The notes beneath the pieces were generated by a model that was not told the DNA's origin, did no database searches, and saw only the letters and a program-made list of their open reading frames with translations. Below, piece after piece: positions 4,301-61,032 of a stretch of DNA of 64,000 nt (the first letter of the stretch is position 1; each line of letters opens with the position of its first letter). Source of the stretch: a virus (taxonomy: Duplodnaviria; Caudoviricetes); the IMG/VR virus record IMGVR_UViG_3300043177_000122, positions 294,994-358,993 of that record, one strand, 5' to 3'. Position numbers and translations under genes: made by a program.

Positions 4301-5339
4301 AATTAGATTCTCGGTTTCTGTACAGTCTTTCTCTCCAAATACAAATGGCTTGAGTCCAGATGGATATACTGGGGCCATTGTAGATGGTAAGATGGGTGTA
4401 AGCGTAGACTTTGAAACCGGTTTACTTACTTTGAACTTCACTAATTTGTACCAAGATGCTACATTGAGAACTTTGAGCACGAAGATTCAGGTTCACGTCT
4501 TTTTAAAGAAGGGTGGATTCAATAACGAGCCGCTCTTTGTTAATGCTACTAAGGTACAAAATATGCTGAGCTTAATTAGCGTATTTAGCGGCGCTAATGA
4601 TGGCGGCCCATCAGCTTTAGTTGATCTGGGTAATGATGTTACTGGTATTCTACCAATTCTAAATGGTGGTACTGGACTAAATGATGTAGGATCATTTGGT
4701 ACAGTTCTAACGAGTAATGGAAGCGGTTTAAGTTATCAATTTGTTAACACGCTACTTAATGTTATACCATTTTCTACTGGTATTCCAGACGCTGATAAAG
4801 TGCCCAAACTAGATGGTTATGGATTCTTAGACCCAAGCTTTATGTACAAACAACCAATGTACATTCCAATTGTGTCTGGATCTTATTCAAATGATGGATA
4901 TACTCCTGCTGCTATTGGTGCTTGCATCTTTAGATTTGATAGTTTCATTTTAGAAGGCCTTGACAGTATTAAATTAGAATGTATAGTAGAAAGCACAAAT
5001 ACAGCTAACACCGCAGCTATTAGACTCTACAATGTAAATACTAATAGCTATGTACTACTGAACGGTATTAGCCCTGTATTGACGACTAATAATACTCAAG
5101 CTACTTATCTAGTTTCTCAGGATCTAAAGTCGCTTCTATCAGCCGGAGCTACGAATTGGATTTATGAAGTTCATTTGAATTCTGATCCTGGTGGCAGCTT
5201 AGATACTTCTATTTGCAAAATGGCGAGATTGGTAATGACATACAATAACTTGACACTAAACGGTTCGGCCCAGATTGCTCCTCCATTAGCTCACAGTTAT
5301 AACTTTGTACCATTCCTACCAAGCCCAACTCCAGTATAA
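1314..5339 (+). CDS. Large virion structural protein (1341 aa) with two dockerin-like Ca-binding repeats and a fibre-type C-terminal region
   Basis: GDVDGNGIIDENDLSLL (3093-3158) and ADINGDFAITTADGYLL (3561-3623). LPILNGGTG fibre motif. C-terminal domain similar to the two repeats in 56168..57550. Confidence 0.65.
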   Translation: MTKRAPVSIQRPIWYDAQQVDETDLSTEQMANDTIDAAIINNHIGGGVLPENLVAKVLFDSSKAIGFLDGLAIETQDQPSDNNLGNQLSISLTDSKASGHRRVKVGIIGLDFQSNLQFETFYFKNNETQTSRKHFTRILVLLFNDFIGDPEISFNLGGKIVISEALPMTVSRDVVMIAQDQQPNLFFRDFFLDSSVNNLSIEAMLQNALPLYNIDSLNILSAPVDLLPILSGDVTTQIGQKFQATTNSVQKISLLLAVRNQVAGQQDNLVWNGDIVVSIYPLQTSIDCPTDFLPNLPIDFSPSNIPIAQISYNYNSLKDAGILLDSVPQPVDFVFSNSPIAGGNVMVPGQYYALAIKRSGSANQCDILIATGQNLIDNSRITTFTGALWVDIPDQDLWFVVWTDAAKISDGQAYDQGHGVTIPKTTTDPTSLATIDNLFGAKQFVGNDVFRAVLQAVTEVSSPVPDQRTGNPVDSRQQYVPQVTLMNSIDIVNLEKTSEPLILGAISDKNIKFFDTSQQNINSTLYSATMVRDELVIRIVDDPTDTVRFDLAVSGLATSLLNGDLVGAIIRPDAAAPFTAYRIADARLCSMILGDVDGNGIIDENDLSLLNKFIGYNMNVGLPLHTNIVTDGYSTVVQNGYQTLTQPFANLFGISFQLLNPNDGYVVASASDGVLVANPNDPSLAQFTSATIQFNTIVGLSTYKLVILDSGSNEADWGSWNIVALDSGLDVLTIQKIYLTGDVFAQMMRADINGDFAITTADGYLLNSYIDRLPTTAIPHATYPAPSTNPYTKIGTRFNVIRLRVEGLVDRSDDYTADPANRADTVHPLQDIFLGNGYLTSHDFYNSPIQLSFTKQLVWDPSLVITTAHPKLVPSVFTSESGVVHNICEIEGIQCNVYPVPQTFDPGKVDFFVPNNLIIGDGELQRPDGYFYKVDFEVGTVVLEIPDGLFGSERTIDIMNDFIADYTGNGATRLGFPSMRFADCSYVQRDALSKDQIRFSVSVQSFSPNTNGLSPDGYTGAIVDGKMGVSVDFETGLLTLNFTNLYQDATLRTLSTKIQVHVFLKKGGFNNEPLFVNATKVQNMLSLISVFSGANDGGPSALVDLGNDVTGILPILNGGTGLNDVGSFGTVLTSNGSGLSYQFVNTLLNVIPFSTGIPDADKVPKLDGYGFLDPSFMYKQPMYIPIVSGSYSNDGYTPAAIGACIFRFDSFILEGLDSIKLECIVESTNTANTAAIRLYNVNTNSYVLLNGISPVLTTNNTQATYLVSQDLKSLLSAGATNWIYEVHLNSDPGGSLDTSICKMARLVMTYNNLTLNGSAQIAPPLAHSYNFVPFLPSPTPV

Positions 5340-6131: not shown

Positions 6132-7277
6132 ATGAAAGTTTGTTGGTTTGGATTCCTCGCTAAAAATCACAGTTGGTCAATCGTTGCTCAAAATCTATCT
6201 AGAGAATTCATTAAATTGGGACACCAGGTAGATTTATTTTCTACTAATGGTACACAGCATTTTCCAGAAGACCTTAAACCTAATTTGAAAGGTTTTGTTA
6301 CTGAGGAAGAAGGGGTGACACCAGATCAGTATGTTGAGAAGATTGCCTCTAAACTAGATGCTAATTATGATATGCAAATGTCGTACACAGCACTCCGTAA
6401 TTTCTGTAATTATTTTGTAAGGGGGAACAAGAATAGATTTGGTATTTGGAATTATGAAACCACTAAATTACCAACAGCATTTTCTAAACATGCCAAATGT
6501 GTTGACTTAGTTTTGCCATCTTCTCAATTTTCTAGAAAAGTATTTACTGATAATGGTATGTCACCTGAAGTACAAGTTGTTGTACCTCATGGCATTCACT
6601 TAGAGAGATTTGCTAATTTAGGTAAGTATCCATTAAAGACTAATAAGAAATATAAGATATTGGTCAATATAGCGCAGCCTCATTTGCGCAAGAATATACC
6701 TGGCCTACTTAAAGCTTTTGGTAAAGCTTTTACTAAAGCAGATGATGTGTGTTTAGTATTAAAGGTATCTCGTAAGAGTGCCAACAATAATCTAATGGCA
6801 TTTGACGTGTCTTTTAATGATATTTATTCTCGTTGGCAAAAAGAATATCCACAACATGCCGAAGTAGAAATCATTGATAAGTTTATCGTTGATATTGAGA
6901 CTTTATACAATGCATGTGATATTGTATTCACAATGACACATGCGGAGTGTTTTTGGATGCCTGGGCTAGAAGGGTTTGCTGCGAATAAAATTGTGGTAGC
7001 ACCAAGATATGGTGGACAATTAGATTATATGAATGATGATAATTCTATTCTAATAGATGGTAAAATTATTAGAGCAGATATGAGAATGCAGTATTGGGAG
7101 CCCTCTCCATATGCAGAGGTATTTGATCCCGATCAGGAGCAAGCTGCGGCTAAGTTAAAAGATTTAGTTGCTAACTATGATGATTATTTAAAGAAATTTT
7201 CTCCAGGCATGCAAGAAATGGCCCATAAGTTTACTTGGGAAAATGCAGCTAAACAGATTATAGGACTATGTAAATGA
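6132..7277 (+). CDS. Glycosyltransferase, GT4-like (GT-B fold)
   Basis: VVPHGI, RKNIPGLLKAF, ACDIVFTMTHAECFWMPGLEG (ExF.x.x.xE motif), VVAPRYGG. Confidence 0.88.
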   Translation: MKVCWFGFLAKNHSWSIVAQNLSREFIKLGHQVDLFSTNGTQHFPEDLKPNLKGFVTEEEGVTPDQYVEKIASKLDANYDMQMSYTALRNFCNYFVRGNKNRFGIWNYETTKLPTAFSKHAKCVDLVLPSSQFSRKVFTDNGMSPEVQVVVPHGIHLERFANLGKYPLKTNKKYKILVNIAQPHLRKNIPGLLKAFGKAFTKADDVCLVLKVSRKSANNNLMAFDVSFNDIYSRWQKEYPQHAEVEIIDKFIVDIETLYNACDIVFTMTHAECFWMPGLEGFAANKIVVAPRYGGQLDYMNDDNSILIDGKIIRADMRMQYWEPSPYAEVFDPDQEQAAAKLKDLVANYDDYLKKFSPGMQEMAHKFTWENAAKQIIGLCK

Positions 7278-7987
7278 CAACTGACCCAAACTATAAGGCA
7301 CTAAGCATTGTTATTCCAGTCTTCAATAAATGGAATTTTACCAAGTCTTGTTTAAAGGATTTAGTACAATTGCCAAGCGATCATGAAATCATCATTATTG
7401 ATAATGCCAGTACTGATGAGACTAATGTTGAAATCAACAAGTTCTGTGATGAATTATTCAAAACTAATCCTACTGGATGTGGCGTTGCATATATTCAGAA
7501 TAAAGAAAATACTTTTCACTCAAAAGCTTGTAATCAGGGTGCCCGAATTGCGATGGGTGAACGCATCTTATTTCTGAACAATGACATAAGGGTTCGTGCC
7601 AACCATTCTACATGGACTAAGCAAATCATTGAAACTTGTGATGCTACTCAAGGACTAGTTGGACCAACCATGGGGCTTCTGGATAAGAACCTTAATTTCG
7701 TTAAAGAGGCCAACGAACAATTAGATGGTAATAGTTATCTTGGTGGTTGGTGTATTGCTGCACGCAAAGAAGTTTGGGAAAAGGTTGGATATTGGAATGA
7801 AGAATTTCCTTTCTATTTCAATGATACTGATCTAAGTTTTCGTGCTCGTCAAAAACAGATTCCTATTACTGTTGTGAAGCTGTTAGATGTTACCCATTTT
7901 GGTAAAGTCTCAGCGCAACAAATTAATATTCCGAAATTGTATCAAGAAGGAAGGAAAGTCTTCCTTAAACATTGGTCTAAAAAGTGA
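7274..7987 (+). CDS. Glycosyltransferase family 2
   Basis: LSIVIPVFN, IIIIDNAS, FLNND, F.FYFNDTDL. Confidence 0.9.
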   Translation: MTTDPNYKALSIVIPVFNKWNFTKSCLKDLVQLPSDHEIIIIDNASTDETNVEINKFCDELFKTNPTGCGVAYIQNKENTFHSKACNQGARIAMGERILFLNNDIRVRANHSTWTKQIIETCDATQGLVGPTMGLLDKNLNFVKEANEQLDGNSYLGGWCIAARKEVWEKVGYWNEEFPFYFNDTDLSFRARQKQIPITVVKLLDVTHFGKVSAQQINIPKLYQEGRKVFLKHWSKK

Positions 7988-9041: not shown

Positions 9042-9043
9042 CT

Positions 9044-9957: not shown

Positions 9958-10950
9958 ATGTCTCCTACATTAGTAAAAATTTTAGTTGCTATTGGTGCCG
10001 TCCTCACGATTGGCGTTTTGATTTTTATCATCTACATGCAGTTACAAATTAAGGCCCAGCAAACTGCTATTCAAACTCAGCTCGTTGAGCAAAAACAATT
10101 AGTAGATGGAATCATGCGTAGTCAGAGCCAATATGCGACTAAACAAGATATTGATAAGTTTGCTAAAGATAACAATGTCAATCTAAAAGCAATTCAAGAT
10201 GATTTAGATAAGTTGAATGCTCAAGTTACTTCTATTAATGTAGTCATTGCTGCTAGCCGAGGGCAACATGGAACTAACATCCCGAGCACTCCGCCTGGTC
10301 CTAATAATCCAACTAATCCAAATCCGGTAGATCCTAGCAATCCCGATCCATTTGGATATATGAAGACACAGCAAAATCTTGCTCTAAATGAAGATTTTGG
10401 TACTGTCAAAGTTCCATTTGGTCAAGTTGGATTTTCTGCCTGGAAGGATAAGCCTTGGTCAGTTGATATCTCTCAAAGAGATTATAATCTGGTTACAGTT
10501 GTTGGAACTGATGAGAATCAAAGGCAGTATTTTTACAACAAGTTTAGTATAACGACTGGCGGCAAGACATACGATGTTCCAATCAAGATAGCTTCTACTA
10601 AACAAGAATATCCAAGTCCAAAGTTTAGTTGGTGGAACCCAAGGCTATTGATGGGGCTGGATGGTGGGGTCAATATTACACACGGAAAAGGCGAGTTTAC
10701 CCCAAGTGTTAATGTAGGAATTATGTCTTATGGGCAATATAAAACTACACCAGACCTATCGATTCTAGAAGTTGGTGTAGGTTATGGAACTATTAACAAG
10801 ACTCCTCAAGTATTAATCACGCCAGTAGCTTATAATATTGGCAAGAATCTCTTTTCACCATTAATGAATAACACATATATAGGCCCAAGTTTTCAAGTTA
10901 GTACAGATGGTTCTCTTGGGGCGGGTGCGGGCCTAAGGGTAGGTTTTTGA
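9958..10950 (+). CDS. Membrane-anchored protein: N-terminal TM helix, coiled coil, Pro/Asn linker, beta-strand C-terminus ending in Phe
   Basis: ILVAIGAVLTIGVLIFIIYM; Q-rich heptads; terminal LGAGAGLRVGF. Confidence 0.7.
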   Translation: MSPTLVKILVAIGAVLTIGVLIFIIYMQLQIKAQQTAIQTQLVEQKQLVDGIMRSQSQYATKQDIDKFAKDNNVNLKAIQDDLDKLNAQVTSINVVIAASRGQHGTNIPSTPPGPNNPTNPNPVDPSNPDPFGYMKTQQNLALNEDFGTVKVPFGQVGFSAWKDKPWSVDISQRDYNLVTVVGTDENQRQYFYNKFSITTGGKTYDVPIKIASTKQEYPSPKFSWWNPRLLMGLDGGVNITHGKGEFTPSVNVGIMSYGQYKTTPDLSILEVGVGYGTINKTPQVLITPVAYNIGKNLFSPLMNNTYIGPSFQVSTDGSLGAGAGLRVGF

Positions 10951-11789
10951 TGCTACATATTCTCACTTTGACATGGAACGCTGCTGATAAGATTACCAAG
11001 TTGTATGAATCACTCATGCCAGCTTTGGAAGGAATTGATTACCACTGGTGGATTAAGGACAACGCCTCTAAAGATGATACTGTTGCCCGAGCCAATACCT
11101 GGGGTGATAAAGTTCATTGTATTGCATATAAGGATAATCGTCAGAACTTTTCAGAAGGCTGCAATTTTCTTTTCAATGAAGCAAAACCAAATGATAGTGA
11201 CTATGTAATGTTACTTAACAACGATATTATCTTTAAAGATAAAGAGTCTATCAAAAAGATGATCTCTATTATCGAGAAAGATGATTCGGTAGGTATGGTT
11301 GGTGCCAGGTTACTTTATACTGATACCGATCAGTTGCAGCACGCTGGTGTTGTTTTTAATCCTACTTATAAAACCCCTATGCACTTCCGTGCTGGTCAGC
11401 AAACAGATGCTGATGCTGAACGCGATCGTGAATTCCAGGTAGTTACTGGTGCTGTTTGTATCACCAAGGGAGAATATTTCCGTAACGCAAACCCACAGAC
11501 TAAATCTGGTATTGCTGGAATGGACGAAAGCTATCATTGGGCATTTGATGATGTAGATTTATGTCTTTCTATTAAGTACAATCTAGGTAAGAAGATTGTT
11601 TATTGTGGTGGAACCAATATCTTCCATGAGGAAAGCGCCTCTCTCAAAAAGAATCAGGTTAATAAACTCTTCTTACCACACAACTTGCAATATCTTTTCA
11701 AGAAGTGGCAAGGCCGTTATGCCATTGATCAAGAAGCTTATACAAAAGATTCCAGACTTAATTTATATCGAGGGACAAATGTCGGTTGA
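10950..11789 (+). CDS. Glycosyltransferase family 2
   Basis: ILTLTWN, IKDNAS, MLLNNDI, VTGAVC, FDDVDLCL. ATG overlaps the upstream TGA. Confidence 0.9.
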   Translation: MLHILTLTWNAADKITKLYESLMPALEGIDYHWWIKDNASKDDTVARANTWGDKVHCIAYKDNRQNFSEGCNFLFNEAKPNDSDYVMLLNNDIIFKDKESIKKMISIIEKDDSVGMVGARLLYTDTDQLQHAGVVFNPTYKTPMHFRAGQQTDADAERDREFQVVTGAVCITKGEYFRNANPQTKSGIAGMDESYHWAFDDVDLCLSIKYNLGKKIVYCGGTNIFHEESASLKKNQVNKLFLPHNLQYLFKKWQGRYAIDQEAYTKDSRLNLYRGTNVG

Positions 11790-12054: not shown

Positions 12055-13026
12055 ATGAAAAAAGTTCTTGTTACAGGTACATGTGGTTTTATCTTTGGAA
12101 ACTTTATTCGCAAAGCCATCTATGATCAAAATCAAAAAAGGTCCCAGGATAAAGGGTACGTGTTTTCTAGTGTGGATCGTGTTACCTATGAAGGTAACTC
12201 CATGTACTGGAACAAAAACCATACTTTCTACCCGGCTGATATCCGCGATCAACACATTATGGATGCCATTTTCAAATTTGAAAAACCAGATATCGTAATT
12301 CATGGGGCGGCCGAAACCTTCGTAGATACGTCATTGAAAGATCCGAACTCTTTCGTCACATCCAATGTGTTGGGAACTCAAGTTATCATTAACAATTGTC
12401 TAAAGCACAAGGTAGAGAGGTTGATTTATATTTCCACAGATGAGGTGTATGGCCATCTTACCAGCGAGTCTGACCCGCCCTGGAAAGAGGATGCTCCACT
12501 TAATCCTAGAAATCCCTATTCAGCTTCTAAGGCTGCCGGAGAACTAATGGTTAAAGCTGCCCACCAGACTCATGGGTTAATTTATAACATTACCAGAAGT
12601 TCTAACTGCTATGGACCTCGCCAGTATGCTGAAAAGCTAGTCCCAAAGGCTATTAAGTGTATTATGGAGGGTCAGAAAATTCCTATCTATGGCCAAGGTT
12701 TACAGATTAGGGATTGGACCTATGTGGCAGATAATTGTACAGCCATTATGGCTATCCTTGATCGAGGCGCCCCAAATGAGATATACAATATTTCAGCCAA
12801 TCAAGAATTCACTAACATTGAAACTATTAATTTGGTTTGCAATGCAATGGGTAAAGGGCATGATTTAATTTCTTTTATTCCAGATCCAAGGACCGGGCAT
12901 GATTTTAGGTATGCGATTGATACCGCCAAGGTTCGTGAATTGGGCTGGAAGCCAACTTATAAATTCAAGGATGGCATCAGAGATACAGTACAATGGTATC
13001 TAGATAATCCATGGTTTTTGAAGTGA
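12055..13026 (+). CDS. rmlB: dTDP-glucose 4,6-dehydratase (extended SDR)
   Basis: HGAAETFVD, STDEVYG, PYSASK, SNCYGPRQ, EKLVP, IRDWTYV, GHDFRYAID. Rossmann motif is the variant GTCGFIFG. Confidence 0.9.
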   Translation: MKKVLVTGTCGFIFGNFIRKAIYDQNQKRSQDKGYVFSSVDRVTYEGNSMYWNKNHTFYPADIRDQHIMDAIFKFEKPDIVIHGAAETFVDTSLKDPNSFVTSNVLGTQVIINNCLKHKVERLIYISTDEVYGHLTSESDPPWKEDAPLNPRNPYSASKAAGELMVKAAHQTHGLIYNITRSSNCYGPRQYAEKLVPKAIKCIMEGQKIPIYGQGLQIRDWTYVADNCTAIMAILDRGAPNEIYNISANQEFTNIETINLVCNAMGKGHDLISFIPDPRTGHDFRYAIDTAKVRELGWKPTYKFKDGIRDTVQWYLDNPWFLK

Positions 13027-45138: not shown

Positions 45139-47412
45139 TTAAACTAATATTGGTGGTCCGCCCCAAAACATAAACATTCCTCGTCTAATATGCATAAATG
45201 CGCGAGAAGTATCATGAGTTAATGTATATTCTCCGAAATTAGCTCTTCCTTCTCTTATATGCGGGATAGTTCCTATAAATCTCGGTTCTTGTACTGGAAA
45301 AGATGTACCGCTCCAGCCAGTAAAAGTTCCAGCAATCACATCTACTGGGAATAATTCTGTACCGCCTAACCAAGGATTATCTCCAGCGCTGCCGTCAAAA
45401 ATAGGGCTACCGGTTTGTCCAACTCCACTAACGTATGTTATTAGTGATACTGCTGCTGATACCGGAATTGGAGTAGTAGTAGATTTAGTTTCTTGCATAT
45501 TTACTCCTTGAGCTAAATTACTAGCTCCTATGTTACCGGGATACCAGCTAGTGTCATTTAAAAAGTCTCCATTTGAACTGCCCGAGCCGCTGCCAATTGT
45601 AAATAGCCTAGCTTCATTATTACTTGGTAATGGTAAAGGTTCTACTTCTGGTATTCCAAACGTAACCAGAAAAGATTTAGGAGTAGTACCATTACTTGGT
45701 CTACGCCCAATCATGGTCACACCAAGACCATAACCATCGTCTCCAATTATAGTATGTCTATAAGTAGTATTAAGTGTTTGAGGATCTCCGCATCCTATGG
45801 CTCCACCTGAATAAGTTCCACTATTGCTGTTGTAGTATAATGGAGTATGAAGATGCCTTCCGGCAACCAAAAAATCTCCTGCTGAATTACCATCAAATCC
45901 TGGTGACATTGTTATTGGTGGACAATTTGCCTGATCGGTATTTGTTTCATTACAAATTCTAATTTGCCATCCAGTGGTGTGTGGGCTTTGTAAAATTATT
46001 CTCGGTGTCGTGGAATCTCCATTCCCTCTATATTGACCTGCTGGATTCGTATTGTTAGCTCCATTTGTTGGAGCGTTAGCGTCGCTAGCATACAAGTACC
46101 AATTCATACTATCTGTTGGTTCAATAGGCGGTAAACTTGGTGAGAAAAATACTGCTCCACCGGTTGACATAGTGCCAGTTCCACCAGTACATCCTGTAAA
46201 GGTTGTCTCTGTTCTTCCAGTATAAGCTACTTGTTGAACACCAGCGCTAGTTGTTACGAACACATTTCCAGATGGAGAAAACCCGGCAAATACGCTGCCA
46301 CCAGTTGACATTAATCCGGTACCACCAGTACACCCAGTAAATGTAGTAGCGGTTGTGCCAGTATATGCAACAGTCTGAGTACCAGCATTAGTCGTTACGA
46401 AAATAATTCCAGTAGTTGGGAATCCTGTAGTTGAGTCTACGTTAATAGTACCTGTTGGTAACCTAACGTTATTAGATCCTGAGGCAATTGTAGTTGTGGC
46501 TGTTGTAGTAGACGCTACATTGATGGTAGTTTGTGGTAGAGTTTGTCCGTTGGATCCTGCTGCAATAGTTGTAGCAATACCAGCTACAATCGGAGATCCT
46601 CCTAATACGCTACCAGTACCACCCGTACAACCAGTGAACGTAGTTCCAGTTGTACCAGTATAGTTAACTGTTTGCCTTCCTGCTGGAGTACAGATAAAAA
46701 TAGTTCCGCTTGTAGCAAATCCAGATGTTGTACTAACATTAAGGGTACCTGTAGGCAATGCAATACTAGCAGTTACTGAATTATTAGTTGACATGGTTCC
46801 AGTGCCACCGGTGCACCCTGTAAAGGTGGAGCTAGTAGTTCCGGTGTAGTTAACCGTTTGTATTCCGGCATTTGTTGCAACTAAAATTGTGCCGGATGTT
46901 GGAAAACCTGAAGTAGAAGCAACGTTGATAGTACCAGTTGGTAGAGAAACGTTGTTAGAGGCAGCCGCAATAACGGTCGTACCACTCAGAAAAATGCTAG
47001 TTCTATATGCAATACGATATGAATTTGTTCCTGTATCATACCCATCAATTAAAAAACAGCCAGAATTATACGTAGGATTAGAGGTACTTCTTAAAACTAA
47101 TAATCTACCAACATCTACTTGACTAACTACTCTAGTGCCAGCGGGAATAGATACAAAAAATTCTAAACCTGAAGCCAGATTAATACCAGCTTTTGTTCCA
47201 CCAGCAAAAGAAGGTACCGCGGCCGTAGGAGTAGAATCTGCAGTGGCAACTAAAAGTGTGCCCACTGAATTTATATTGAAATTAGTATCTCCAACATATG
47301 TATATAGTAATACTCTTCGAAGAAATATCGCCATCAGATAAGATGGAATATAATTTCTAGCTGGAAACGATACATTTTGTATTAAATAGTCTCGTAATAA
47401 ATGTCTAGCCAT
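45139..47412 (-). CDS. Modular virion protein, scaffold family A (757 aa): 4 TIAA modules
   Basis: MARHLLRDY, VGRLLVLRS, RIILQSPH, GRANFG. Confidence 0.75.
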   Translation of the reverse strand: MARHLLRDYLIQNVSFPARNYIPSYLMAIFLRRVLLYTYVGDTNFNINSVGTLLVATADSTPTAAVPSFAGGTKAGINLASGLEFFVSIPAGTRVVSQVDVGRLLVLRSTSNPTYNSGCFLIDGYDTGTNSYRIAYRTSIFLSGTTVIAAASNNVSLPTGTINVASTSGFPTSGTILVATNAGIQTVNYTGTTSSTFTGCTGGTGTMSTNNSVTASIALPTGTLNVSTTSGFATSGTIFICTPAGRQTVNYTGTTGTTFTGCTGGTGSVLGGSPIVAGIATTIAAGSNGQTLPQTTINVASTTTATTTIASGSNNVRLPTGTINVDSTTGFPTTGIIFVTTNAGTQTVAYTGTTATTFTGCTGGTGLMSTGGSVFAGFSPSGNVFVTTSAGVQQVAYTGRTETTFTGCTGGTGTMSTGGAVFFSPSLPPIEPTDSMNWYLYASDANAPTNGANNTNPAGQYRGNGDSTTPRIILQSPHTTGWQIRICNETNTDQANCPPITMSPGFDGNSAGDFLVAGRHLHTPLYYNSNSGTYSGGAIGCGDPQTLNTTYRHTIIGDDGYGLGVTMIGRRPSNGTTPKSFLVTFGIPEVEPLPLPSNNEARLFTIGSGSGSSNGDFLNDTSWYPGNIGASNLAQGVNMQETKSTTTPIPVSAAVSLITYVSGVGQTGSPIFDGSAGDNPWLGGTELFPVDVIAGTFTGWSGTSFPVQEPRFIGTIPHIREGRANFGEYTLTHDTSRAFMHIRRGMFMFWGGPPILV
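46531..46572. repeat. 42 bp dispersed repeat, copy 1
   Basis: ttgtggtagagtttgtccgttggatcctgctgcaatagttgt; 41/42 identical to 51919-51960. Confidence 0.9.
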
Positions 47413-49710: not shown

Positions 49711-52700
49711 TTATATGATGAAGAACAAGTTTGATGGTAAGATTGTGTTATCCCAAATTATGGCAATACCATTTTGTATATTAAGGAACTGTCCGCTTGG
49801 TGTACCAAATCTGTGATAGAGTGGTAGTTGCGTGCTTGTAAATTTTAGAGTTCTTAATCTTACTCTGCCCAATGAAAATTGTCCTGTTACACCCGGCAAG
49901 CATAGTACACCATCTGAAGCTATTATAGTTCCTCGTGTTGTGTTGAATGCTAATTTAATGTCTGTAAGGTTAGCTCCAAAAGACGGCGAGCCATCTCCTG
50001 CTAAAGATTTAGATAACATTCGATGAACTCTAATAGTTCCAGTAGTATCTTTCATCCAAAAACCATTACCAATAGTTCCGTTACCACCGGCAGATGTACC
50101 ATCACATCTAAAAACAGTTCCATTGAATACTCCACCTCTTGTATTTACTATTACAGGATTTATATCCGCAGATTGTGGATAAAGTCTGATTGGAATTTCA
50201 CAGTGGAAATATGATGATCCATCTCCACTGTTTATATCTTTGTAATGCATCCAGAAGAATGCCGGATCAGCAGCCATTGTCATAGCCATAGTGTTAGCTG
50301 GGCCAGTGTTGAAGATATTTCCACTCAGTGTATTATTGAATTGTGCAGTTGCATCTATCTGCGGATCTCCAGTGACAGGAAATGTAAGGCCATTCCAATT
50401 TCCTCCTGGAGAAATAATAGTGCCAATGGTACCGGCAGTATCATTTCCAAACATTTGTACCTGGCTATTGGCTTGGCCAGGATTAATACCAACTGCTGAT
50501 GGATTGAATTGCATAACCATATAGTTTCCGTTGCCGCTACTAAATGTTTGAGCAAGTCCAGCATCCACAATTCTATAGTTGATATTTGTTCTATTAGTAA
50601 ATGATGGGTGTAGATTTGTTGGATCGGGAGTGCCCCCAGTATTCAAATTGACTCTAATAGAGTTAGGACTATTAACAGCAGTGATTATGTAGATAGCATC
50701 TTCAGTAGTTCCAGAATTTGGCTTCCACATTATTAACAGTTTTCCAACCATATTGCTGGTTGTAACTGTTTGTGTTCCACCACTGGTCCAAGATCCGTTT
50801 GGGGCAGAATTATTTAGGTATATACTATTACGATTGGCAATAGATCCTCCGCTTGTATATGTTCCTGATGCAAAAGATCCGTTTAATGTAGCAATTCTAT
50901 TGCTAATTGCTGTGGTTAAAAATGTGCTATTAGCATTTGGCAAACCACCTATTCCAGATGTTATAACAGTCTGTCCAGTTAGTAATGTATGGAAATCGGA
51001 AGTGATAACAGTAATTGGCGACAGTATAGTATTTCCAGTAGTCATTGTACCGGTACCGCCCGAACAACCAGTGAAAGTATTATGAGTGGTTCCAGTATAG
51101 CTTACTGTTTGAACTCCGGCGCTACTTGTGATATTAAAAGATCCGCTTGAGGCATAGTTAATAGTCACTGGATTGCCGGTTGACATGGTGCCAATACCGC
51201 CCGAACAACCAGTGAAAGTTGTGCCGGTCGTTCCAGTGTAAGTAACTGGTTGATATCCAAGAGTGGTTAAAACATAAATGTATCCACTAGTTGGGAATCC
51301 TGTGGTAGACGCAACGTTAATAGTAGATTGTGGTAAGGCTTGTCCGTTAGAAGCAACAGCAATCGAAGTATAGTTGCTTGCTGGAGAAAATGCCGTAAAT
51401 ACAGCACCGTCCGAGGAGGTATTTCCTGTACCACCAGAAGCCCCAGTTAATGTAGTGGCTGTTACTCCAGTATATGTTACTAGTTGAGATCCGTTAGTAG
51501 TAGTAATATAAAGTGAGCCAGTAGTTGGGAAATTGGTAAAGAAACCAGTATTATTTACAGTATTACCAGTAAACATAGTTCCAACACCACCTAGTGCTCC
51601 AGTAAATGTAGTTGCTGTTGTGCCAGTATATGTAACAGCTTGATTAAATGGTCCACCACCGATTGGGTTATTAATCAGTAAAGTACCAGTACCACCTGTT
51701 ACACCAGTAAATGATGTAGCGGTAATTCCAGTATAAGTAACTGAGGTAGCTGCATAAACAGTGCCACCAGTTGACATGGTACCACCTCCGCCAGAACATC
51801 CAGTAAAGGTAGTAGCAGTGGTACCAGTATATGTAACTATCTGAGAACCAGTGCTGGTTGTTACAAAAATTGTACCAGAGGCTGCAAATCCAGTCGTAGA
51901 CGCTACGTTGATAGTTCCTTGTGGTAGAGCTTGTCCGTTGGATCCTGCTGCAATAGTTGTTTGAATAGCGTTATCTGCTACACTTAGTGTGCCGCTGGTT
52001 GGAAATCCACTAGTAGTAGATACGTTAATAGTTGATTGTGGGAGTGATTGCCCGCTAGATCCAAGTGCAATACTTGTTACAACTATTGTTGCAACATTCA
52101 AAGTACCAGAGGTTGGGAATCCGGTAGTAGAGGCTACGTTAATTGTGCCTGTCGGCAGATTAACATTGTTAGAGGCAGCAGCTACAGTTGTAGAGGCAGT
52201 TGCGGTAGCAGCTACGTTAATAGTTGCTTGTGGGAGCGTTTGAACACCAGTTGTAGTTGTAAATGGTGCAACAGTACTTGAGTTAACAGTTGCTTGTGGC
52301 AATGTGGCACCGTTTGATGGAAACGCCGTAGTAGTATTAAAATATGTTGCATTAGAAATAGAGTTAGTTGGTGTATTAATAGTCCACGTACCATTAGCTG
52401 TGGTATTTCCAGTTACTCCGCTTACAACAACTGATGCCAAGTTAACATAAGAATTTGCCGCGGTCATATTTACTGAAATTGGAGCATACACAGCGCCATC
52501 AATAGACATAGTTCCTGTACCACCTGAACATCCTGTAAAGGTTGTTCCCGTAATTCCTGTATATGTAACTGTTTGTATACCAGCACTAGTGGTGACATGA
52601 ATTGTTCCAGAACTTGGGAATCCGATAGAAATAGATCCGCCAGTTTGCATAGATCCTCGACCTAAAGTACATCCGGTAAACGTAGTTGCAGTTATACCGG

Positions 52701-53484
52701 TGTACAAAACTAACTGGGTGCCCTCTGTTGTCTGCACATTTAGAAATCCACCTGATGGAAATCCTGTTGTGGAGGCTACGTTAATAGTGCCAGTTGGCAG
52801 AGAAACATTGTTAGAGGCAGCAGCGATAGTTGTGCTAGCGGTAGTTGTGGAGGCAACATTGATTGTTGCTTGAGGTAAACTTTGTCCGTTAGATCCTGCT
52901 GCGATTGTAGTTCTGTAATTAGAAACATTATTAATAGTAAAGCTAGTGTTTAAATTAGTAAAAGGATTAATATTTGTGGCATTAAAAATAGCATTGCCAT
53001 TAACGTTGGTACTTATTTGAGCTGGAGTATATCCATCATTGCCAATTGCTAAAACAGGAGTTCCTTCAGTAAAGTTAACTGGCCAAGCGAATGGTGTAGT
53101 GTTAACAGTTCCACCACCAGTATATGAACCATTTCCAGTTGATCCATTTAAACTAAATGTAGTTGTGCTTGTGACAGTAATTTGGAAGGTACCATTGGCC
53201 GCTAAATTACCGAGCACGCCAGAAATTGTAACTTGTTGTCCAGTAAATAAAGCATTAGTTGTGGTAGTGGTTATTACAATTGGAGAAACGCCAGCTCCCG
53301 TAGTGTTTGATACGGAATAGGTTGTGCTCATAGTGGTTGCAAATCCGCCTGGAGATTGAAGGCTAGAAGTACCATTAACGCAATATCCCCAGAACTCGTA
53401 GAGTATTTTAAGGAACTCGGAAGCTCTTCCAGTTTGGTTATAGTTGTAAAGTAGTCCTCGACAGAACCTTAGTGAAGTTGGCAT
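49711..53484 (-). CDS. Modular virion protein, scaffold family B (1257 aa), recursively nested modules
   Basis: FCRGLLY, FWGYCVNG; 8 TIAA-type and 3 NPI-type modules, most of them nested. Confidence 0.78.
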   Translation of the reverse strand: MPTSLRFCRGLLYNYNQTGRASEFLKILYEFWGYCVNGTSSLQSPGGFATTMSTTYSVSNTTGAGVSPIVITTTTTNALFTGQQVTISGVLGNLAANGTFQITVTSTTTFSLNGSTGNGSYTGGGTVNTTPFAWPVNFTEGTPVLAIGNDGYTPAQISTNVNGNAIFNATNINPFTNLNTSFTINNVSNYRTTIAAGSNGQSLPQATINVASTTTASTTIAAASNNVSLPTGTINVASTTGFPSGGFLNVQTTEGTQLVLYTGITATTFTGCTLGRGSMQTGGSISIGFPSSGTIHVTTSAGIQTVTYTGITGTTFTGCSGGTGTMSIDGAVYAPISVNMTAANSYVNLASVVVSGVTGNTTANGTWTINTPTNSISNATYFNTTTAFPSNGATLPQATVNSSTVAPFTTTTGVQTLPQATINVAATATASTTVAAASNNVNLPTGTINVASTTGFPTSGTLNVATIVVTSIALGSSGQSLPQSTINVSTTSGFPTSGTLSVADNAIQTTIAAGSNGQALPQGTINVASTTGFAASGTIFVTTSTGSQIVTYTGTTATTFTGCSGGGGTMSTGGTVYAATSVTYTGITATSFTGVTGGTGTLLINNPIGGGPFNQAVTYTGTTATTFTGALGGVGTMFTGNTVNNTGFFTNFPTTGSLYITTTNGSQLVTYTGVTATTLTGASGGTGNTSSDGAVFTAFSPASNYTSIAVASNGQALPQSTINVASTTGFPTSGYIYVLTTLGYQPVTYTGTTGTTFTGCSGGIGTMSTGNPVTINYASSGSFNITSSAGVQTVSYTGTTHNTFTGCSGGTGTMTTGNTILSPITVITSDFHTLLTGQTVITSGIGGLPNANSTFLTTAISNRIATLNGSFASGTYTSGGSIANRNSIYLNNSAPNGSWTSGGTQTVTTSNMVGKLLIMWKPNSGTTEDAIYIITAVNSPNSIRVNLNTGGTPDPTNLHPSFTNRTNINYRIVDAGLAQTFSSGNGNYMVMQFNPSAVGINPGQANSQVQMFGNDTAGTIGTIISPGGNWNGLTFPVTGDPQIDATAQFNNTLSGNIFNTGPANTMAMTMAADPAFFWMHYKDINSGDGSSYFHCEIPIRLYPQSADINPVIVNTRGGVFNGTVFRCDGTSAGGNGTIGNGFWMKDTTGTIRVHRMLSKSLAGDGSPSFGANLTDIKLAFNTTRGTIIASDGVLCLPGVTGQFSLGRVRLRTLKFTSTQLPLYHRFGTPSGQFLNIQNGIAIIWDNTILPSNLFFII
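51919..51960. repeat. 42 bp dispersed repeat, copy 2
   Basis: ttgtggtagagcttgtccgttggatcctgctgcaatagttgt. Confidence 0.9.
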
Positions 53485-56167: not shown

Positions 56168-57550
56168 TCACGAGTACACTATAGTTATTCGAGCATTGTT
56201 ACATATTACTCTATCTGTCACAGATCCGCTTGTTTTCCAAATTTGAACTTCATATCTGGTAGGAGCATCGCTTCTAATATTTCCTGGACTAGTACCCACA
56301 ACTAAAGGTATGGAAGTGTATTCTGTGGTAACAGTGTTATTAAATTGGAATAGTGTATTTGTAACAGCTACATTGTGTGTAGTATCAAATAACCTACAAT
56401 ATCCATCTACACCAACCGAAGAAACTTCTAGACTGGCTTTAAATGTCATACTTCTAGCTCTTCCACTATTATCTGTTAGTAGTGCCGGATACAGTGTAAT
56501 ATCCACTTCTCTACCACCTGTTCCTGCTGGTGTAGAAAATCCATTCATTTCTGTGCCAGACACAAAATTAATATCAGAAGGCATAGCTAAAGCTAGAAGC
56601 GTAGTAATTAAAACAGGCGGACTATAAACAATATTAATTCTAGCATTTCTACAGATAACTTGATCATTAGCCCCGCCACCAGTAATAAAAATTTGAACTT
56701 CATACTGAGCAGTCATATCTGTTCTCATCAATCCAGGAGTTACTCCTGAATTAATATTGGCAGACAGCTCTACTGAAGTTAAACTGCTGGTAGATAATGT
56801 ACTACTTGTAATAACAACATTGTTTGTAACATCTTTGATTCTTACGAAACCCGTGGCTGCCGCATTAGTTACTTCCAGATCAGCTTTAAAGGTCATAGTT
56901 CTAGTACGACCATCTAGAGTGGTAGATGGAAATGGTGACATATCTACAGCACGAGCGCCTACTCTGAATGGAGAAGAAGAGTTAGTATATCCGTCTCCTC
57001 CTACAAAAACAATATCAACCGGCAAAAGAATAACGGTTGGTAGAATATTTAAAGTTACACTTTGAGTAACTGGTTTCCAAATATAACCGTCCCAAGTAAG
57101 TACTTGATTGGATGTTGGGGCTTGAGTAGAAACTGGACGACCCTGTAATCCGGTAACATATGGAAGTGTGTGTGTATTTCCTAAATCTTGTGCTAATTGA
57201 ACTGAATTAGTAGGTTGCCAAACAATACCATTCCATCCTATAACTTGATTAGGTAATGGTGCGGCACTGGAAAGTGGACGATCCTGTAAACCGATAACTA
57301 ATGGATGAGATGGTGTGCCACCTAAATCTCCAGCTATTGTTACAACTTGCTGAGTAATTAAATTCTCAATACGGTCCATTCTAGATCTGACAGTAGCAAA
57401 TGTGCCGCTCGGTTTAGCTCCTAATTCATTTTCAATTGCAATAATGGCATCTCTTAGTCGATTGACCGTATCTCCACCAATTGGGGATTGGTTATCCTCT
57501 ACAAGAGGCAAAGTAACATTATTGTCTATCTGTGCTGGATAAGTAGTCAT
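56168..57550 (-). CDS. Fibre-like structural protein with duplicated approx. 135 aa C-terminal domain
   Basis: N-terminus like 57656 gene; GDLGG..P.V.GLQ.RP repeats; two YEVQI...D.VIC.NARI.IVYS domains. Confidence 0.7.
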   Translation of the reverse strand: MTTYPAQIDNNVTLPLVEDNQSPIGGDTVNRLRDAIIAIENELGAKPSGTFATVRSRMDRIENLITQQVVTIAGDLGGTPSHPLVIGLQDRPLSSAAPLPNQVIGWNGIVWQPTNSVQLAQDLGNTHTLPYVTGLQGRPVSTQAPTSNQVLTWDGYIWKPVTQSVTLNILPTVILLPVDIVFVGGDGYTNSSSPFRVGARAVDMSPFPSTTLDGRTRTMTFKADLEVTNAAATGFVRIKDVTNNVVITSSTLSTSSLTSVELSANINSGVTPGLMRTDMTAQYEVQIFITGGGANDQVICRNARINIVYSPPVLITTLLALAMPSDINFVSGTEMNGFSTPAGTGGREVDITLYPALLTDNSGRARSMTFKASLEVSSVGVDGYCRLFDTTHNVAVTNTLFQFNNTVTTEYTSIPLVVGTSPGNIRSDAPTRYEVQIWKTSGSVTDRVICNNARITIVYS

Positions 57551-57655: not shown

Positions 57656-60604
57656 ATGAGTAATTATCCTTTTAGTTTCGACAATAACATAACCCTCCCT
57701 GGTGTTTCTGGAAGTTCACAGGAAGATGTAGCTATTACTGCGCTTAGAAGTGCGGTTTTTGCCATTGAAACAGAGTTGGGCGTAACGCCTAGTGGAATTT
57801 ATCCAGATGTCAGAACTAGATTAGATATTTTAGAATCTAGGCTCCAATTTGGGGTTTCTCCGCAAATTCCAAATGATGGTTATGTAAAAAGTCCTTTATA
57901 TATCTGGAATGTGCCTCAAAATGTAGTTTTAAGCATTAGTGACGGCTACGGCGCTCCCACCGAAAATAGATTAGACGGCTCTCTTTATATGAGAGGTGGG
58001 GATGGTTACGCTAATAATCAACTTTATGTTAGGTTAAATGGCCAATGGAAGCCCGTTCAAACTGAACAATTTGTTGCATCAAATGATCTAATTGGATATC
58101 CTCCTGGTTCAGACGGGCATTTAGCTCAAACAGTTGTGGGTTTGTATAACCATCCATTTGCCACAACTATGAACTCTGTTGGTGCCATTCAAGATGGTTA
58201 CCATGTTACCTGGAATAACTTTACCAGTCACTGGGAAGAACAAACTGGATTTATACCAGGTCGTGATTTGATGGCATTTTCTGGCCCTTATGGCCGCACC
58301 GGTCAGCAAGTTATTGGTCTGCAAGGATTCCCATTATCAGGGTTCCCTCCAACTGACGGATATACATTAGTCTGGCAGGCATCGGATAACCGCTGGGAAC
58401 CACAAGCCCGTGCAGTTGTATTCGATGGTTATGTTGCTCGTGTTAATTTGAGGTCCAACCGCGCTCAACAATCACCAATTTTAAACACTAAGACTGGAAT
58501 TGTAAACTTTGGAACTGATACAAGTGGAGCGAGCCTCGGAGCCACCAACGACTATGCTATAATTTTAGGTGGTGACAGAAACCTTTCATCCGGAATTCAT
58601 GCAATCACAGTAGGCGGTTTTGCTAATAATTCTTCGGATGGCTATGCCTTAATAATTAACGGAAATTCTAACATAGCGTCTGCCCAAAACTCGACAGTAC
58701 TTAATGGAATTACCAACACAGCTAGCGGAATACGATCATTTGTACTTAATGGTACATCAAATACTGCTTCCGGTGTCAACTCGTTCGTTGGTAATGGAAC
58801 TAGTAACACAGCCGCAGCTAATCTTTCTGCAATTCTAAACGGATCTTCTAATAGTATTTCTATAGGATCCACACACACAGGTATTGGGTTTGGAACAAAT
58901 AACCAAATAACAGGCGGGGCAGCTTCTCAATTCTCTGTTATTATTGGCGGCACCACAAATGTAATTTCTAGTGCAGAAAATGTTCTGATCGGCGTTCCAG
59001 ATAGTTCTGATTCGGCCGCGCCACATTCTATTCTGTTATCTGGTGTAAATAACTCTATACTTACACTGTCTGATTATTCTGCGGTCTTAACCGGCGTAAA
59101 TAATACAGTAAACATTTCTTCAGAATATGGATTCATTGGAACCGGTCAAAACAACAGCGTAACCGGCCACTTCTCTACTATTTTGAATGCTGATACTTCT
59201 ACGGTTAATGGTCAGCACGCTACGGTTCTAAAAGGACTTAGCAACAGCGCAACTGGTCCATACTCCACTATTGTTAATGGTAATAATAACCTTATCAATA
59301 GTGCTGGTTGGAGTATTATCCTCGATGGATACAATAATAGTGTAACTGGTACCGGCTCATTTATTGCTGATGGTTACAATAATAGTGTTTCTGGGTTCTT
59401 TTCATCCATTCTAAATGGTAACTTCAATACTATTGCAGGTAGAAATAGCACTGTATTAAATGGTGCCAATAATACCATAGACTCTACTAGTGCCGAGAGC
59501 ACAGTTATAGTTGGAGCTAATAACTCATTCGTTAACTCGGCCAATACTACTGCAACTGGAAGTGGAAATACTTTCACAAACGCCGCCCAGACTTTTGTAA
59601 TTGGAACTACTAATAGTATTCAATCGGCCTCTTCGTTTATTAACGGTTCAACTAACACACTTGCAGCCGGATCTATATTTAACAGAATGTTTGGCTCCTT
59701 TAACACTATTGGCGCTAATGCATCTACTAATTTTATTATTGGTAATGCAAATATTATTGGCCCATCTAATACTACATCCAATACTATAGTACTAGGAACT
59801 AATAACTTAGTTGATAACTCTAATACAGTACTTATCAGAGGATCTAGCAATATAGCCAACTCTAATTTTGGTAGTGTAAGTGGTCAATTTGGTAAATCTA
59901 GGATGTTTGGCCAAGAAGTTAGAGCCAACTCTAGATTTACTTCTACTACCATTGCGGCTGGTTCTAACGGAGCTAGCTTGCCACAAGCTACAATTAACGT
60001 AGCATCTACCGCAGGATTTCCAGCTAGCGGATCAATTGCAGTTATTACCTCATTAGGTATGCAATCCGTGAACTATTCTGGTACAACTGGAACTAGTTTC
60101 ACAGGATGCTCTGGTGGTACTGGTACTATGTCAACTGGTAATGCAGTTGGTAAAATTGGTGAGGCTCAGTGGTCACACTTAGTATTAACTGGCATGGCTG
60201 CTGGTGGTGCGGCTGTTCCACTACAATTACAGGATGCTATTGCAGCTAATCCAACTTTTGTTGATGGTTATTCTTATGATTTAAGCATCAAAGTGCTTAT
60301 AGTAAATACATCTCCAATTACACCAAATCCTGTTGTTCCTGCAAGATATTATATTGATGTACTTGCACATCAGGAAAGTGGTGTCTTAGTTCTTGATAAT
60401 ATTAACTATACTTTATCTACACCTAACACGGTAGATAGTATATCTAGAACGCCTTGGACAGTTACAGTTTCTACCAATGGCGCTAACCAAATGTTAGTTA
60501 CGGTTGATACCGAATCAATTACTTCCTACGTGCAACCAAGCAATACTCCATCTGACAGAAGGGCAATTGCTACGATTGAAATGCGAGAAATTTCGAGAAT
60601 ATAA
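57656..60604 (+). CDS. Tail fibre/adhesin-like protein (982 aa) with YadA-head-like approx. 15 aa repeats and one TIAA module
   Basis: Periodic S.V..G..N.A..G pattern from about 58550 to 59900; GDL.G / GLQG.P repeats; 10 DGY motifs. Confidence 0.75.
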   Translation: MSNYPFSFDNNITLPGVSGSSQEDVAITALRSAVFAIETELGVTPSGIYPDVRTRLDILESRLQFGVSPQIPNDGYVKSPLYIWNVPQNVVLSISDGYGAPTENRLDGSLYMRGGDGYANNQLYVRLNGQWKPVQTEQFVASNDLIGYPPGSDGHLAQTVVGLYNHPFATTMNSVGAIQDGYHVTWNNFTSHWEEQTGFIPGRDLMAFSGPYGRTGQQVIGLQGFPLSGFPPTDGYTLVWQASDNRWEPQARAVVFDGYVARVNLRSNRAQQSPILNTKTGIVNFGTDTSGASLGATNDYAIILGGDRNLSSGIHAITVGGFANNSSDGYALIINGNSNIASAQNSTVLNGITNTASGIRSFVLNGTSNTASGVNSFVGNGTSNTAAANLSAILNGSSNSISIGSTHTGIGFGTNNQITGGAASQFSVIIGGTTNVISSAENVLIGVPDSSDSAAPHSILLSGVNNSILTLSDYSAVLTGVNNTVNISSEYGFIGTGQNNSVTGHFSTILNADTSTVNGQHATVLKGLSNSATGPYSTIVNGNNNLINSAGWSIILDGYNNSVTGTGSFIADGYNNSVSGFFSSILNGNFNTIAGRNSTVLNGANNTIDSTSAESTVIVGANNSFVNSANTTATGSGNTFTNAAQTFVIGTTNSIQSASSFINGSTNTLAAGSIFNRMFGSFNTIGANASTNFIIGNANIIGPSNTTSNTIVLGTNNLVDNSNTVLIRGSSNIANSNFGSVSGQFGKSRMFGQEVRANSRFTSTTIAAGSNGASLPQATINVASTAGFPASGSIAVITSLGMQSVNYSGTTGTSFTGCSGGTGTMSTGNAVGKIGEAQWSHLVLTGMAAGGAAVPLQLQDAIAANPTFVDGYSYDLSIKVLIVNTSPITPNPVVPARYYIDVLAHQESGVLVLDNINYTLSTPNTVDSISRTPWTVTVSTNGANQMLVTVDTESITSYVQPSNTPSDRRAIATIEMREISRI

Positions 60605-61032
60605 TGGCAACAACAGTTAGAACTACAAGAACATTAGCTCTGCCCGATATGTCGGACAGATATCCAAGTAATAATCCTCCTGACGGCTACATTCTTACTT
60701 TCAGTGGTGCGGACGGTTATTACCTCGCAAAACCTTTATCTAGAATTTTAGCAATTAGTTCACCAAACTCTCCATATACTCCAACAACTGAAGATGTTGT
60801 TCTAGTTCCTAATCATGTTGGAGTTTTTACAATCAATTTGCCACTGGGTCAAACTCCAGGAAAAACTTTTTACATTAAGGACTTTGCGGGAGTGGCTGCC
60901 GCTAATAATATTGTAGTTTCTGGCAACGGAAATAATATTGATGGCGCCCCAAGCCAAACTCTAAATGTAAATTATAGTGGAATACAAGTTATTTGGAGCG
61001 GTGCCAGTTGGGCAATTCTCGCTAACATCTAA
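60604..61032 (+). CDS. Small structural protein sharing the C-terminal domain of 31850..33526
   Basis: TINLP...PGKTFYIKDFAG.AAANNIVVSGNG..IDG. Confidence 0.7.
   Translation: MATTVRTTRTLALPDMSDRYPSNNPPDGYILTFSGADGYYLAKPLSRILAISSPNSPYTPTTEDVVLVPNHVGVFTINLPLGQTPGKTFYIKDFAGVAAANNIVVSGNGNNIDGAPSQTLNVNYSGIQVIWSGASWAILANI

Follow-up and report, generated by a model that had tools for sequence, protein, structure and literature searches.

Known glycosylation sequons include N-X-S/T, which is also used by the cytoplasmic NGT/HMW1C enzymes, and the D-(S/T)-(A/I/L/V/M/T) motif of Bacteroidetes O-glycosylation. Adhesins are glycosylated in the cytoplasm as well: in serine-rich-repeat adhesins glycosylation is initiated by the GT4-type enzymes GtfA/B and continued by later elongating glycosyltransferases (GTs), while in autotransporters the beta-helix repeats are heptosylated by TibC/AAH. 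Small motifs of a structural kind are known as well: in the tip of the T4 long tail fibre, His-x-His motifs of gp37 face the three-fold axis and bind iron, and in the tyrosine corner of Greek-key beta proteins a Tyr near a strand end bonds through its hydroxyl group to the backbone 3-5 residues earlier, classically with Gly at position Y-2. The virions of mycobacteriophages are glycosylated by phage-encoded glycosyltransferases, according to PMC12619734, which cites Freeman et al. 2023, and Tyr residues of bacterial surface-layer (S-layer) proteins carry O-linked beta-Glc or beta-Gal, a linkage noted as chemically more stable (PMC2943079). Here, the tripeptide Asp-Gly-Tyr (DGY) was analyzed in the proteins encoded by the window, i.e. 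the whole stretch of 64,000 nucleotides that forms the final 64 kb of the 358,993-bp virus record IMGVR_UViG_3300043177_000122 of an uncultured freshwater huge phage (guanine plus cytosine content 38%), and above all in a 982-aa tail fibre protein (Table 1). No description of a DGY motif in phage proteins was found in literature searches. From the sequences compared, DGY looks like an exact, clade-specific surface tag that selection has introduced and kept at numerous turns, unrelated to one another, in proteins of the tail fibres, baseplate and sheath and in Kelch-type proteins, and the best reading, held tentatively and at somewhat less than even odds, is that it would be a recognition tag for a Tyr-directed modification.

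The eight DGY-bearing open reading frames (ORFs) of the window comprise 6,339 aa and contain 30 DGY, 58 DG and 41 GY; the 982-aa fibre accounts for 10, 12 and 11 of these, respectively. All DGY counts given in an earlier sequence-only reading of this DNA were found to be exact. Per-protein shuffles of the eight proteins gave a mean of 0.8 DGY and a maximum of 7 in 2,000, and the expectation from a first-order Markov model (DG x GY / G) was 3.5, which is exceeded 8.5-fold. DGY was the top-ranked tripeptide both in all 56 ORFs of the window (30 against 2.7 +/- 1.6 expected, z=17) and in the 359-kb genome (71 against 15.3 expected, z=15); the enrichment, for which shuffled sequences and a tripeptide count over the whole proteome had been named as the checks, thus stayed in both. 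Because the motif is encoded by nine different 9-mers, selection acts on the protein, as had been argued from the varying codons, and a motif at the level of the DNA was ruled out.

The enzymes between 6 and 40 kb had been said to lack the motif, and the 41 ORFs at 5.4-40.4 kb indeed hold 49 DG and not a single DGY. The broader claim that DGY is confined to structural proteins is correct within the window and too strict for the genome, where 12 DGY lie outside the structural block. In this block Tyr follows 59 of 200 DG, although it makes up 3.5% of the residues; in the rest of the genome it follows 12 of 307, and seven of these 12 belong to two Kelch-repeat proteins. The latter are encoded far from the structural block (G000:69016-70266 in L006 and G000:52126-53055 in L005). 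In the first of them Tyr comes after 5/5 DG of the blade motif, and in its orthologues from three other genomes after 4/4 or 4/5. Zero DGY were found in the fibre-like ORFs 40633-43182, 43185-45131 and 47944-49701, and the proteins between sheath and baseplate hub (tube candidates, tape measure and neighbours), whose roles are assigned by gene order, have 0 DGY among about 20 DG. The flanks of the sites had been described as unrelated. This holds insofar as the motif does not belong to one repeated domain, with the reservation that some sites lie in repeats: in the 982-aa fibre, sites 180 and 234 are located within two copies of a 43-aa repeat and sites 557 and 572 in adjacent 15-residue coils. 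In the 142-aa protein encoded next to this fibre the two sites are 10 residues apart.

On metagenomic contigs, the longest of 498 kb, 88 strong homologues of the 982-aa fibre were found, with an average of 10.5 DGY, 12.9 DG and 11.6 GY each. Per site, the ten positions of the query are DGY in 29-87 of 89 aligned sequences, and since five extra columns are DGY in 26-45 of 89 homologues and absent from the query, sites have evidently been gained and lost in evolution. When HMMER was run exhaustively with the first 340 aa as query, it yielded 140 further representatives (50% identity clusters, 97,599 aa). In these, Y follows 59% of DG and D precedes 75% of GY, and 635 DGY were counted against 18.6 expected (34x). 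The excess is specific to the exact tripeptide, as the near variants NGY (0.87x), EGY (0.38x), DGF (1.06x), DGW (0.22x), SGY (0.85x) and DAY (0.42x) and the five permutations of DGY (0.6x to 1.7x) show. In relatives, the protein at the position matching the 142-aa protein or sharing its C-terminal domain has up to 14 DGY per 300 aa, and neighbouring fibre genes also encode 7 DGY in 198 aa at spacings of 8-9 residues. The DGY-rich records looked up mostly share ribonucleotide reductase, PhoH-PIN, M24 peptidase, AAA_28, RNase T and DHFR/ThyA neighbours, and from these shared gene neighbours the heavy users of DGY appear to belong to one broad huge-phage clade. On these counts, the enrichment is a trait of the whole phage clade. 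It could still be thought an artefact of composition, shared ancestry or miscalled frames, given that some sites are situated in repeats and that many fibre proteins share modules. Such an origin is very improbable, as judged from the z values of 15-17 against per-protein shuffles, the 8.5x excess over the Markov expectation, the permutations without enrichment, and the occurrence of the motif at non-homologous positions and in long ORFs with dozens of homologues.

The 982-aa protein consists, in this order, of a fibre-type N-terminus, two 43-aa repeats, a 15-residue beta-roll, one 'FTGCSGG' module and a C-terminal beta domain. In its AlphaFold2 (AF2) model the predicted local distance difference test (pLDDT) is 81 overall, above 90 in the roll, mostly 85-95 in the C-terminal domain and lower over the first 270 residues. 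Using Foldseek, the core was matched to the heads of the trimeric autotransporter adhesins UspA1 (3pr7), BpaC (7o23) and CbpF (9gh5), with a probability of 1.0 and a TM-score on the target of 0.54-0.56 to 3pr7 and 7o23; a match to PF21300 remained below threshold. In confident regions of the model, strands 182-187, 236-241 and 872-886 start at the DGY Tyr and Asp-Gly forms the preceding turn, while Y559 and Y574 are single bridge residues immediately after the turn. Within the beta-roll, DGY takes the place of the usual NG-x corner in three coils, the adjacent ones at 557 and 572 and an early one at 328. Read coil by coil, the residue after the corner Gly is D, F, N, I, T, T, S, T, V, V, Q, N, Y, Y, N, A, S, S, and this position is variable and mostly polar. 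At site 870 in the C-terminal domain, Tyr is replaced by Lys in 18/89 relatives.

The 43-aa repeat was analyzed with a hidden Markov model (HMM) of our own, with which 498 copies from 118 proteins (relatives and this genome) were aligned. At repeat positions 28-30, the DGY-rich proteins have D at 0.61, G at 0.78 and Y at 0.60, and the DGY-poor proteins, bacterial surface proteins among them, D at 0.59 and G at 0.77, followed by Q/D/E/N at 0.96 combined. The second repeat turn (positions 38-40) is D-G-Y in about 1/4 of the DGY-rich copies and x-(N/S)-(Q/E) in the others, and further turns have been converted likewise ('GDLSGTYP' to 'GDLDGYYP'; 'NG(A/S)' to 'DGY'). In the window, the first repeat turn is the one used in the 982-aa protein and the second the one used in the 460-aa protein ('LTW-DGY-IW'). 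For the beta-roll, the homologues outside the clade have 7 DGY among 74 DG. Since bacterial and out-of-clade copies carry Q/D/E/N at this position, the fold as such does not require the DGY Tyr. DGY-free homologues of the repeat that were looked up (P0120, P0155 and P0130; L109 and L110) are located in bacterial polysaccharide or type-IX-secretion neighbourhoods, and the sharing of the repeat hints at module exchange with a Bacteroidota-type host. Additionally, PF19264 (DUF5907) matches the relatives P0094 and P0136 as well as a 584-aa protein of this genome and is sub-threshold on the 982-aa protein, in whose sequence two units of the 43-aa repeat ('GDL.G.YP.P.V..LQG..V....P.DG.VL.W......W.P') are visible.

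The position of DGY in these folds also brings in the main rival explanation, a structural clamp, in which the Asp-Gly turn and a hydrogen bond of the Tyr hydroxyl group to the hairpin, a neighbouring chain or the next coil would stiffen long-lived extracellular fibres with no reader and no modification. We regard it as possible, if doubtful. A clamp would be in keeping with the location of DGY always at a turn-to-strand junction, with DG alone being common to homologues that have no Tyr, with the direct stacking of the two DGY roll coils 15 residues apart, with runs of DGY every 6-9 residues in relatives, which resemble hairpin stacks, and with the strong conservation of the sites. The same alignments contain points that do not suit it: homologues with the same repeat or fold manage with a charged or polar residue instead of Tyr; Asn-Gly occurs throughout the same beta-roll and yet NGY is not enriched; the residues that take over where Tyr is lost (N, S, T, D or K) are those of an exposed position; and most sites have no partner DGY nearby in sequence.

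In order to compare Tyr with Phe, an exchange test was performed with 13 structural orthologue sets from four genomes that are about 50% identical to each other. Replacements to Phe made up 8% at the DGY Tyr against 43% at other Tyr (Fisher p=8e-18), and the commonest replacements of the DGY Tyr were N, S and T. In the 982-aa family, the DGY Tyr is Phe in about 15/870 cells; other Tyr columns swap freely with Phe. Because the DGY Tyr so rarely becomes Phe, its hydroxyl group seems to matter. The clamp accounts for this exclusion equally well, as a hydroxyl hydrogen bond would likewise exclude Phe. Taken together, the exactness and fixed order of the tripeptide, its intolerance of Phe, the polar residues found there in homologues without the Tyr and the repeated origin at different turns argue for a recognised tag rather than a general turn preference, and we infer from the substitutions that the DGY Tyr is probably surface-exposed in the assembled virion.

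An exposed tag might also act without any chemistry, as a binding micro-site with weak, multivalent Asp/Tyr contacts for host or environmental glycans, an assembly factor or another protein of the virion. Sugar-binding sites and interfaces typically contain Tyr and Asp, the motif is densest in the distal fibres, and the core of the fibre resembles adhesin heads. This explanation is nevertheless unlikely, for the motif is also found in the sheath, the baseplate wedge and the Kelch proteins, stickiness needs no exact D-G-Y that is intolerant of N, E, F and W, and no partner has been identified. Less probable again are chemistries at the tag other than glycosylation, namely Tyr phosphorylation, sulfation, nucleotidylation or oxidative cross-linking, or succinimide/isoaspartate formation at Asp-Gly. 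The need for the hydroxyl group and the exact motif would suit any Tyr-directed enzyme, and of all Asp sites Asp-Gly forms succinimides most readily; on the other side, Pfam scans of neighbours and clade-specific genes, which were not exhaustive for the genome, returned no kinase, sulfotransferase or oxidase. The sequence-only reading had offered four mechanisms (a modification sequon, a protease or cross-linking site, an isoaspartate turn and a docking motif) as conjecture, and conjecture they stay, although the data fit a Tyr recognition or modification site best. A protease site is unlikely, as proteins with 10-30 sites would be cut to pieces, and an isoaspartate turn leaves the strict Tyr unexplained.

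Glycosylation is the most plausible chemistry for the proposed tag, in that soluble sugar enzymes are nearly always next door. The cluster directly follows the gene of the 1341-aa baseplate/fibre protein, which is the last gene before it, and comprises, in this order, the GT4/GT1, a GT2, the LAGLIDADG endonuclease, the Fpg/Nei glycosylase, the 330-aa protein, a second GT2, the dehydratase and the TubZ-like tubulin. No membrane segment was found in the three GTs and the dehydratase. The 330-aa protein is kept in all four compared genomes; it has no family match, and its matches in the ESM Atlas are only hypothetical viral proteins. For the comparison of gene content, 31 syntenic loci anchored on the 1341-aa protein were used, of which 29 reach far enough and 25 entered a tree-aware comparison. 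The GT4 is located beside the baseplate genes in 29/29 loci and the dehydratase in 28/29. Homing endonucleases were seen at varying positions in the cluster of related loci, and two loci have inserts between the baseplate protein and the GT4, encoding an FGE-sulfatase-like protein (L124:13793-14572) and a 1208-aa protein with ten Ig-like (Big_3_5) domains (L125:13238-16864).

On this basis, a specific version of the modification tag was formulated, which taken as a whole is rather unlikely: DGY would be the sequon of a hitherto unknown cytoplasmic Tyr-O-glycosylation system of huge freshwater and soil phages, in which the GT4 starts, optional GT2 enzymes extend, and a deoxy-sugar made by the phage coats tail, baseplate and fibres. 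Asp-Gly forms a tight turn and Tyr is the first residue of the next beta strand, where it would point outwards. A phage-encoded factor would then recognise DGY and act on the Tyr hydroxyl group, which is the most likely purpose of the motif. As a best guess, this would be O-glycosylation in the cytoplasm, initiated by the adjacent soluble GT4 with a deoxy-sugar donor from the neighbouring 4,6-dehydratase and extended by the two dispensable GT2 enzymes, and the outcome would be a sugar coat over the tail exterior. Both the reader of the tag and its chemistry are deduced here rather than observed.

The GT2 genes vary among the genomes and were therefore compared with the DGY load. Between 2 and 6 GT2 matches per record were found in 9/11 related records and none in G004 and G005, which represent one lineage. 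At the level of whole genomes, this sole GT2-free lineage has the lowest DGY load, with 44 in-frame DGY in G004 against 74, 87 and 74 in the other compared genomes (16-19 expected each). Of the genes of the present genome with homologues in both G002 and G003, only eleven lack one in G004. Both cluster GT2 genes are among them, and in G004 they are cleanly removed from an otherwise syntenic cluster. At the level of the loci, the GT2-less G004-like clade has 7-8 DGY in the shared parts of two adjacent baseplate proteins, compared with 6-15 in GT2-positive loci. A second GT2-less locus, L135, has a homing endonuclease as its sole extra cluster gene. With two independent losses of opposite DGY load, the co-occurrence of GT2 genes and DGY was dropped as support; one loss goes with a low load and the other with the highest, and DGY can thus be maintained without the GT2 pair. 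Its persistence once the GT2 genes are lost would suit a scheme in which a GT4 initiates and GT2 enzymes are optional extenders, and it would also suit the structural clamp. The GT4 and the dehydratase stay candidates solely through their near-constant presence and adjacency. The link to the phage GTs is hence weaker than the sequence-only reading had implied: GT4 and dehydratase adjoin the baseplate genes, but DGY persists without GT2 genes.

Several observations weigh against glycosylation at a DGY tag. Spacings of 3-6 residues between DGY occur and would crowd bulky glycans, and the exposure of the DGY Tyr is read from substitution patterns alone. The GT4 and the dehydratase are invariant or nearly so in the sample, hence no co-variation signal is available for them, and they could serve the modification of DNA or of a polysaccharide. 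The GT2 pair was lost together in two lineages, which a well-supported tree places apart from each other, and the GT2-less L135 has 18 DGY, the highest number of all loci. Without any GT2, DGY is yet 2.3x enriched in G004, and G003 has both GT2 genes, but the orthologue of the 982-aa fibre in it has only 3 DGY. Non-virion proteins show no avoidance of DGY (22 observed against 27 expected in four genomes). In a sequence search of the PDB with the three GTs, generic GT matches were obtained and none like a known Tyr-directed transferase. Pfam scans of neighbours without assigned function and of the genes missing in G004 likewise returned no Tyr-directed enzyme. As to a DNA glycosylation route, no thymidylate-synthase or hydroxymethylase homologue was found in the 83%-complete genome, which leaves that question unsettled.

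The record is classified as linear by IMG/VR, with a CheckV completeness of 83%, and identical DNA is also present in freshwater metagenome runs. A circular join of the contig ends was considered and rejected: the last fibre gene stays incomplete after joining, because the record is a linear fragment. Since it stops within this gene, further fibre genes may be absent from it. In a tblastn search of the 982-aa protein against 50,697 phage records no match was found, and comparison with PHROGs gave near-zero matches for fibre, head and tail proteins, with the exceptions of the sheath, the baseplate wedge and a small C-terminal domain. Moreover, a module of about 45 aa ('...Q.V.YTG.T.TTFTGC(S/T)GGTG.M...') occurs 15 times in six fibre ORFs, and its recurrence accounts for an excess of the tripeptides TGC, CSG and GCS. 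A possibly related unit near the N-terminus of ORF 61102-63999 is matched by Pfam E1_FCCH.

Table 1. Coordinates of features in the 64,000-nt window (numbers in brackets after DGY are residue positions).
Feature	Position (nt)	Strand	Details
End of baseplate/fibre block	1-5339		
ORF1, C-terminal end of 2383-aa baseplate/fibre protein	1..1305	+	2 DGY in window, 5 overall
1341-aa baseplate/fibre protein	1314..5339	+	7 DGY (631, 663, 762, 928, 1016, 1167, 1194)
Sugar-enzyme cluster, replication or metabolism genes	5.4-40 kb		
Soluble GT4/GT1-type glycosyltransferase	6132..7277	+	
Soluble GT2 glycosyltransferase GT2a	7274..7987	+	
LAGLIDADG endonuclease	8379-9089	-	
Fpg/Nei DNA glycosylase	9097-9948		
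330-aa protein	9958-10950		N-terminal membrane helix, not a GT
Soluble GT2 glycosyltransferase GT2b	10947..11789	+	
Nucleoside diphosphate (NDP)-sugar 4,6-dehydratase/epimerase	12055..13026	+	
TubZ/PhuZ-like tubulin	13066-14427		
GH25 lysozyme	15362-16228		
M23 peptidase	39536-40327		
Second fibre block	40.6-64 kb	both	
ORFs with the ~45-aa TTFTGC module	40633-43182, 43185-45131, 45139-47412, 49711-53484, 57656-60604, 61102-63999	first four all -	
757-aa fibre protein	45139..47412	-	2 DGY (123, 559)
1257-aa fibre protein	49711..53484	-	1 DGY (150)
460-aa fibre-like protein	56168..57550	-	3 DGY (154, 186, 382)
982-aa tail fibre	57656..60604	+	10 DGY (74, 96, 116, 180, 234, 257, 328, 557, 572, 870)
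DGY codon starts of the 982-aa fibre	57875, 57941, 58001, 58193, 58355, 58424, 58637, 59324, 59369, 60263		
43-aa fibre repeat x2 (residues ~150-252)	58103..58411	+	DGY just before 'xLxW' strand (Y182, Y236)
15-residue left-handed beta-roll (residues ~280-770)	58493..59965	+	Foldseek, coil register
C-terminal beta domain	60167..60604	+	AF2 model; DGY 870-872 opening long strand 872-886
142-aa protein	60604..61032	+	2 DGY (27, 37)
Fibre gene truncated at contig end	61102..63999	+	3 DGY (282, 692, 700)

For a tag to be kept at hundreds of exposed turns throughout a clade of phages of 350-500 kb, there must be either something that reads it or a structural problem, so far undescribed, that it solves. 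If DGY is a Tyr glycosylation sequon, it would stand for a new protein-modification system and for a tail coating of a kind not seen before in phages, which would bear on how hosts are recognised, how defences are evaded and how stable virions are in water; glyco-engineering would gain a compact tag. A structural DGY would instead be a new minimal motif stabilising beta-rich fibres. Both readings can be tested directly, since the sequences already provide candidate enzymes and small proteins with DGY.

In comparison with the systems described so far, DGY resembles glycosylation sequons in being a three-residue motif that includes the acceptor, is scattered on unrelated surface proteins and is gained and lost in evolution. 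It differs in that the acceptor would be Tyr, that D-G-Y is undescribed and that its targets would be virion proteins assembled in the cytoplasm, and the case for it is made here from sequence. The proposed GT4-type initiator with dispensable elongating GTs acting on repetitive, beta-rich adhesins is reminiscent of GtfA/B; the acceptors of GtfA/B and TibC/AAH are Ser or Thr, and no homology to the cluster GTs beyond the GT superfamily was found. Like the His-x-His motifs of gp37, DGY is a tiny motif that recurs along a trimeric fibre with unrelated flanks, there in the service of fibre structure, whereas DGY is not restricted to fibres and its Tyr aligns with positions that are polar and appear exposed. 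Compared with the tyrosine corner, the Tyr of DGY is located at the start of a strand and Gly at Y-1 rather than Y-2. The core of the 982-aa fibre shares the short-period left-handed beta-roll of the YadA-like heads to which it was matched; unlike autotransporter adhesins, the protein has a phage-fibre N-terminus ('YP..DN..AIE.ELG'), a C-terminal beta domain conserved in phage homologues and no membrane anchor, and it is encoded in a phage fibre cluster. By its model, it is a fibre with an adhesin-head-like fold rather than a member of that family, and the likeness concerns the scaffold and not the DGY tag.

As in the mycobacteriophages, phage GT genes stand beside structural genes and a sugar coat of the virion is proposed (PMC12619734). 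The mycobacteriophage glycans are placed at the C-termini of capsid and tail-tube subunits, whereas DGY is internal and found on proteins of the tail, baseplate and fibres; neither the hosts nor the phage lineages are related to those considered here. With the S-layer proteins the proposal shares Tyr as glycan acceptor on prokaryotic surface arrays (PMC2943079). There, glycan transfer is ascribed to an oligosaccharyltransferase acting during secretion, few sites per protein are used and no DGY consensus is given in that review (PMC2943079), while the candidate enzymes of the present cluster are soluble. Glycosylation of mycobacteriophage virions (cited in PMC12619734) and Tyr O-glycosylation of S-layer proteins (PMC2943079) are thus already known. 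New here are the Tyr/Phe exchange test, the comparison of clade and non-clade copies of the 43-aa repeat, the scaffold resembling an adhesin head, the constancy of GT4 and dehydratase beside the baseplate genes, and the tree-aware finding that the GT2 pair does not track DGY.

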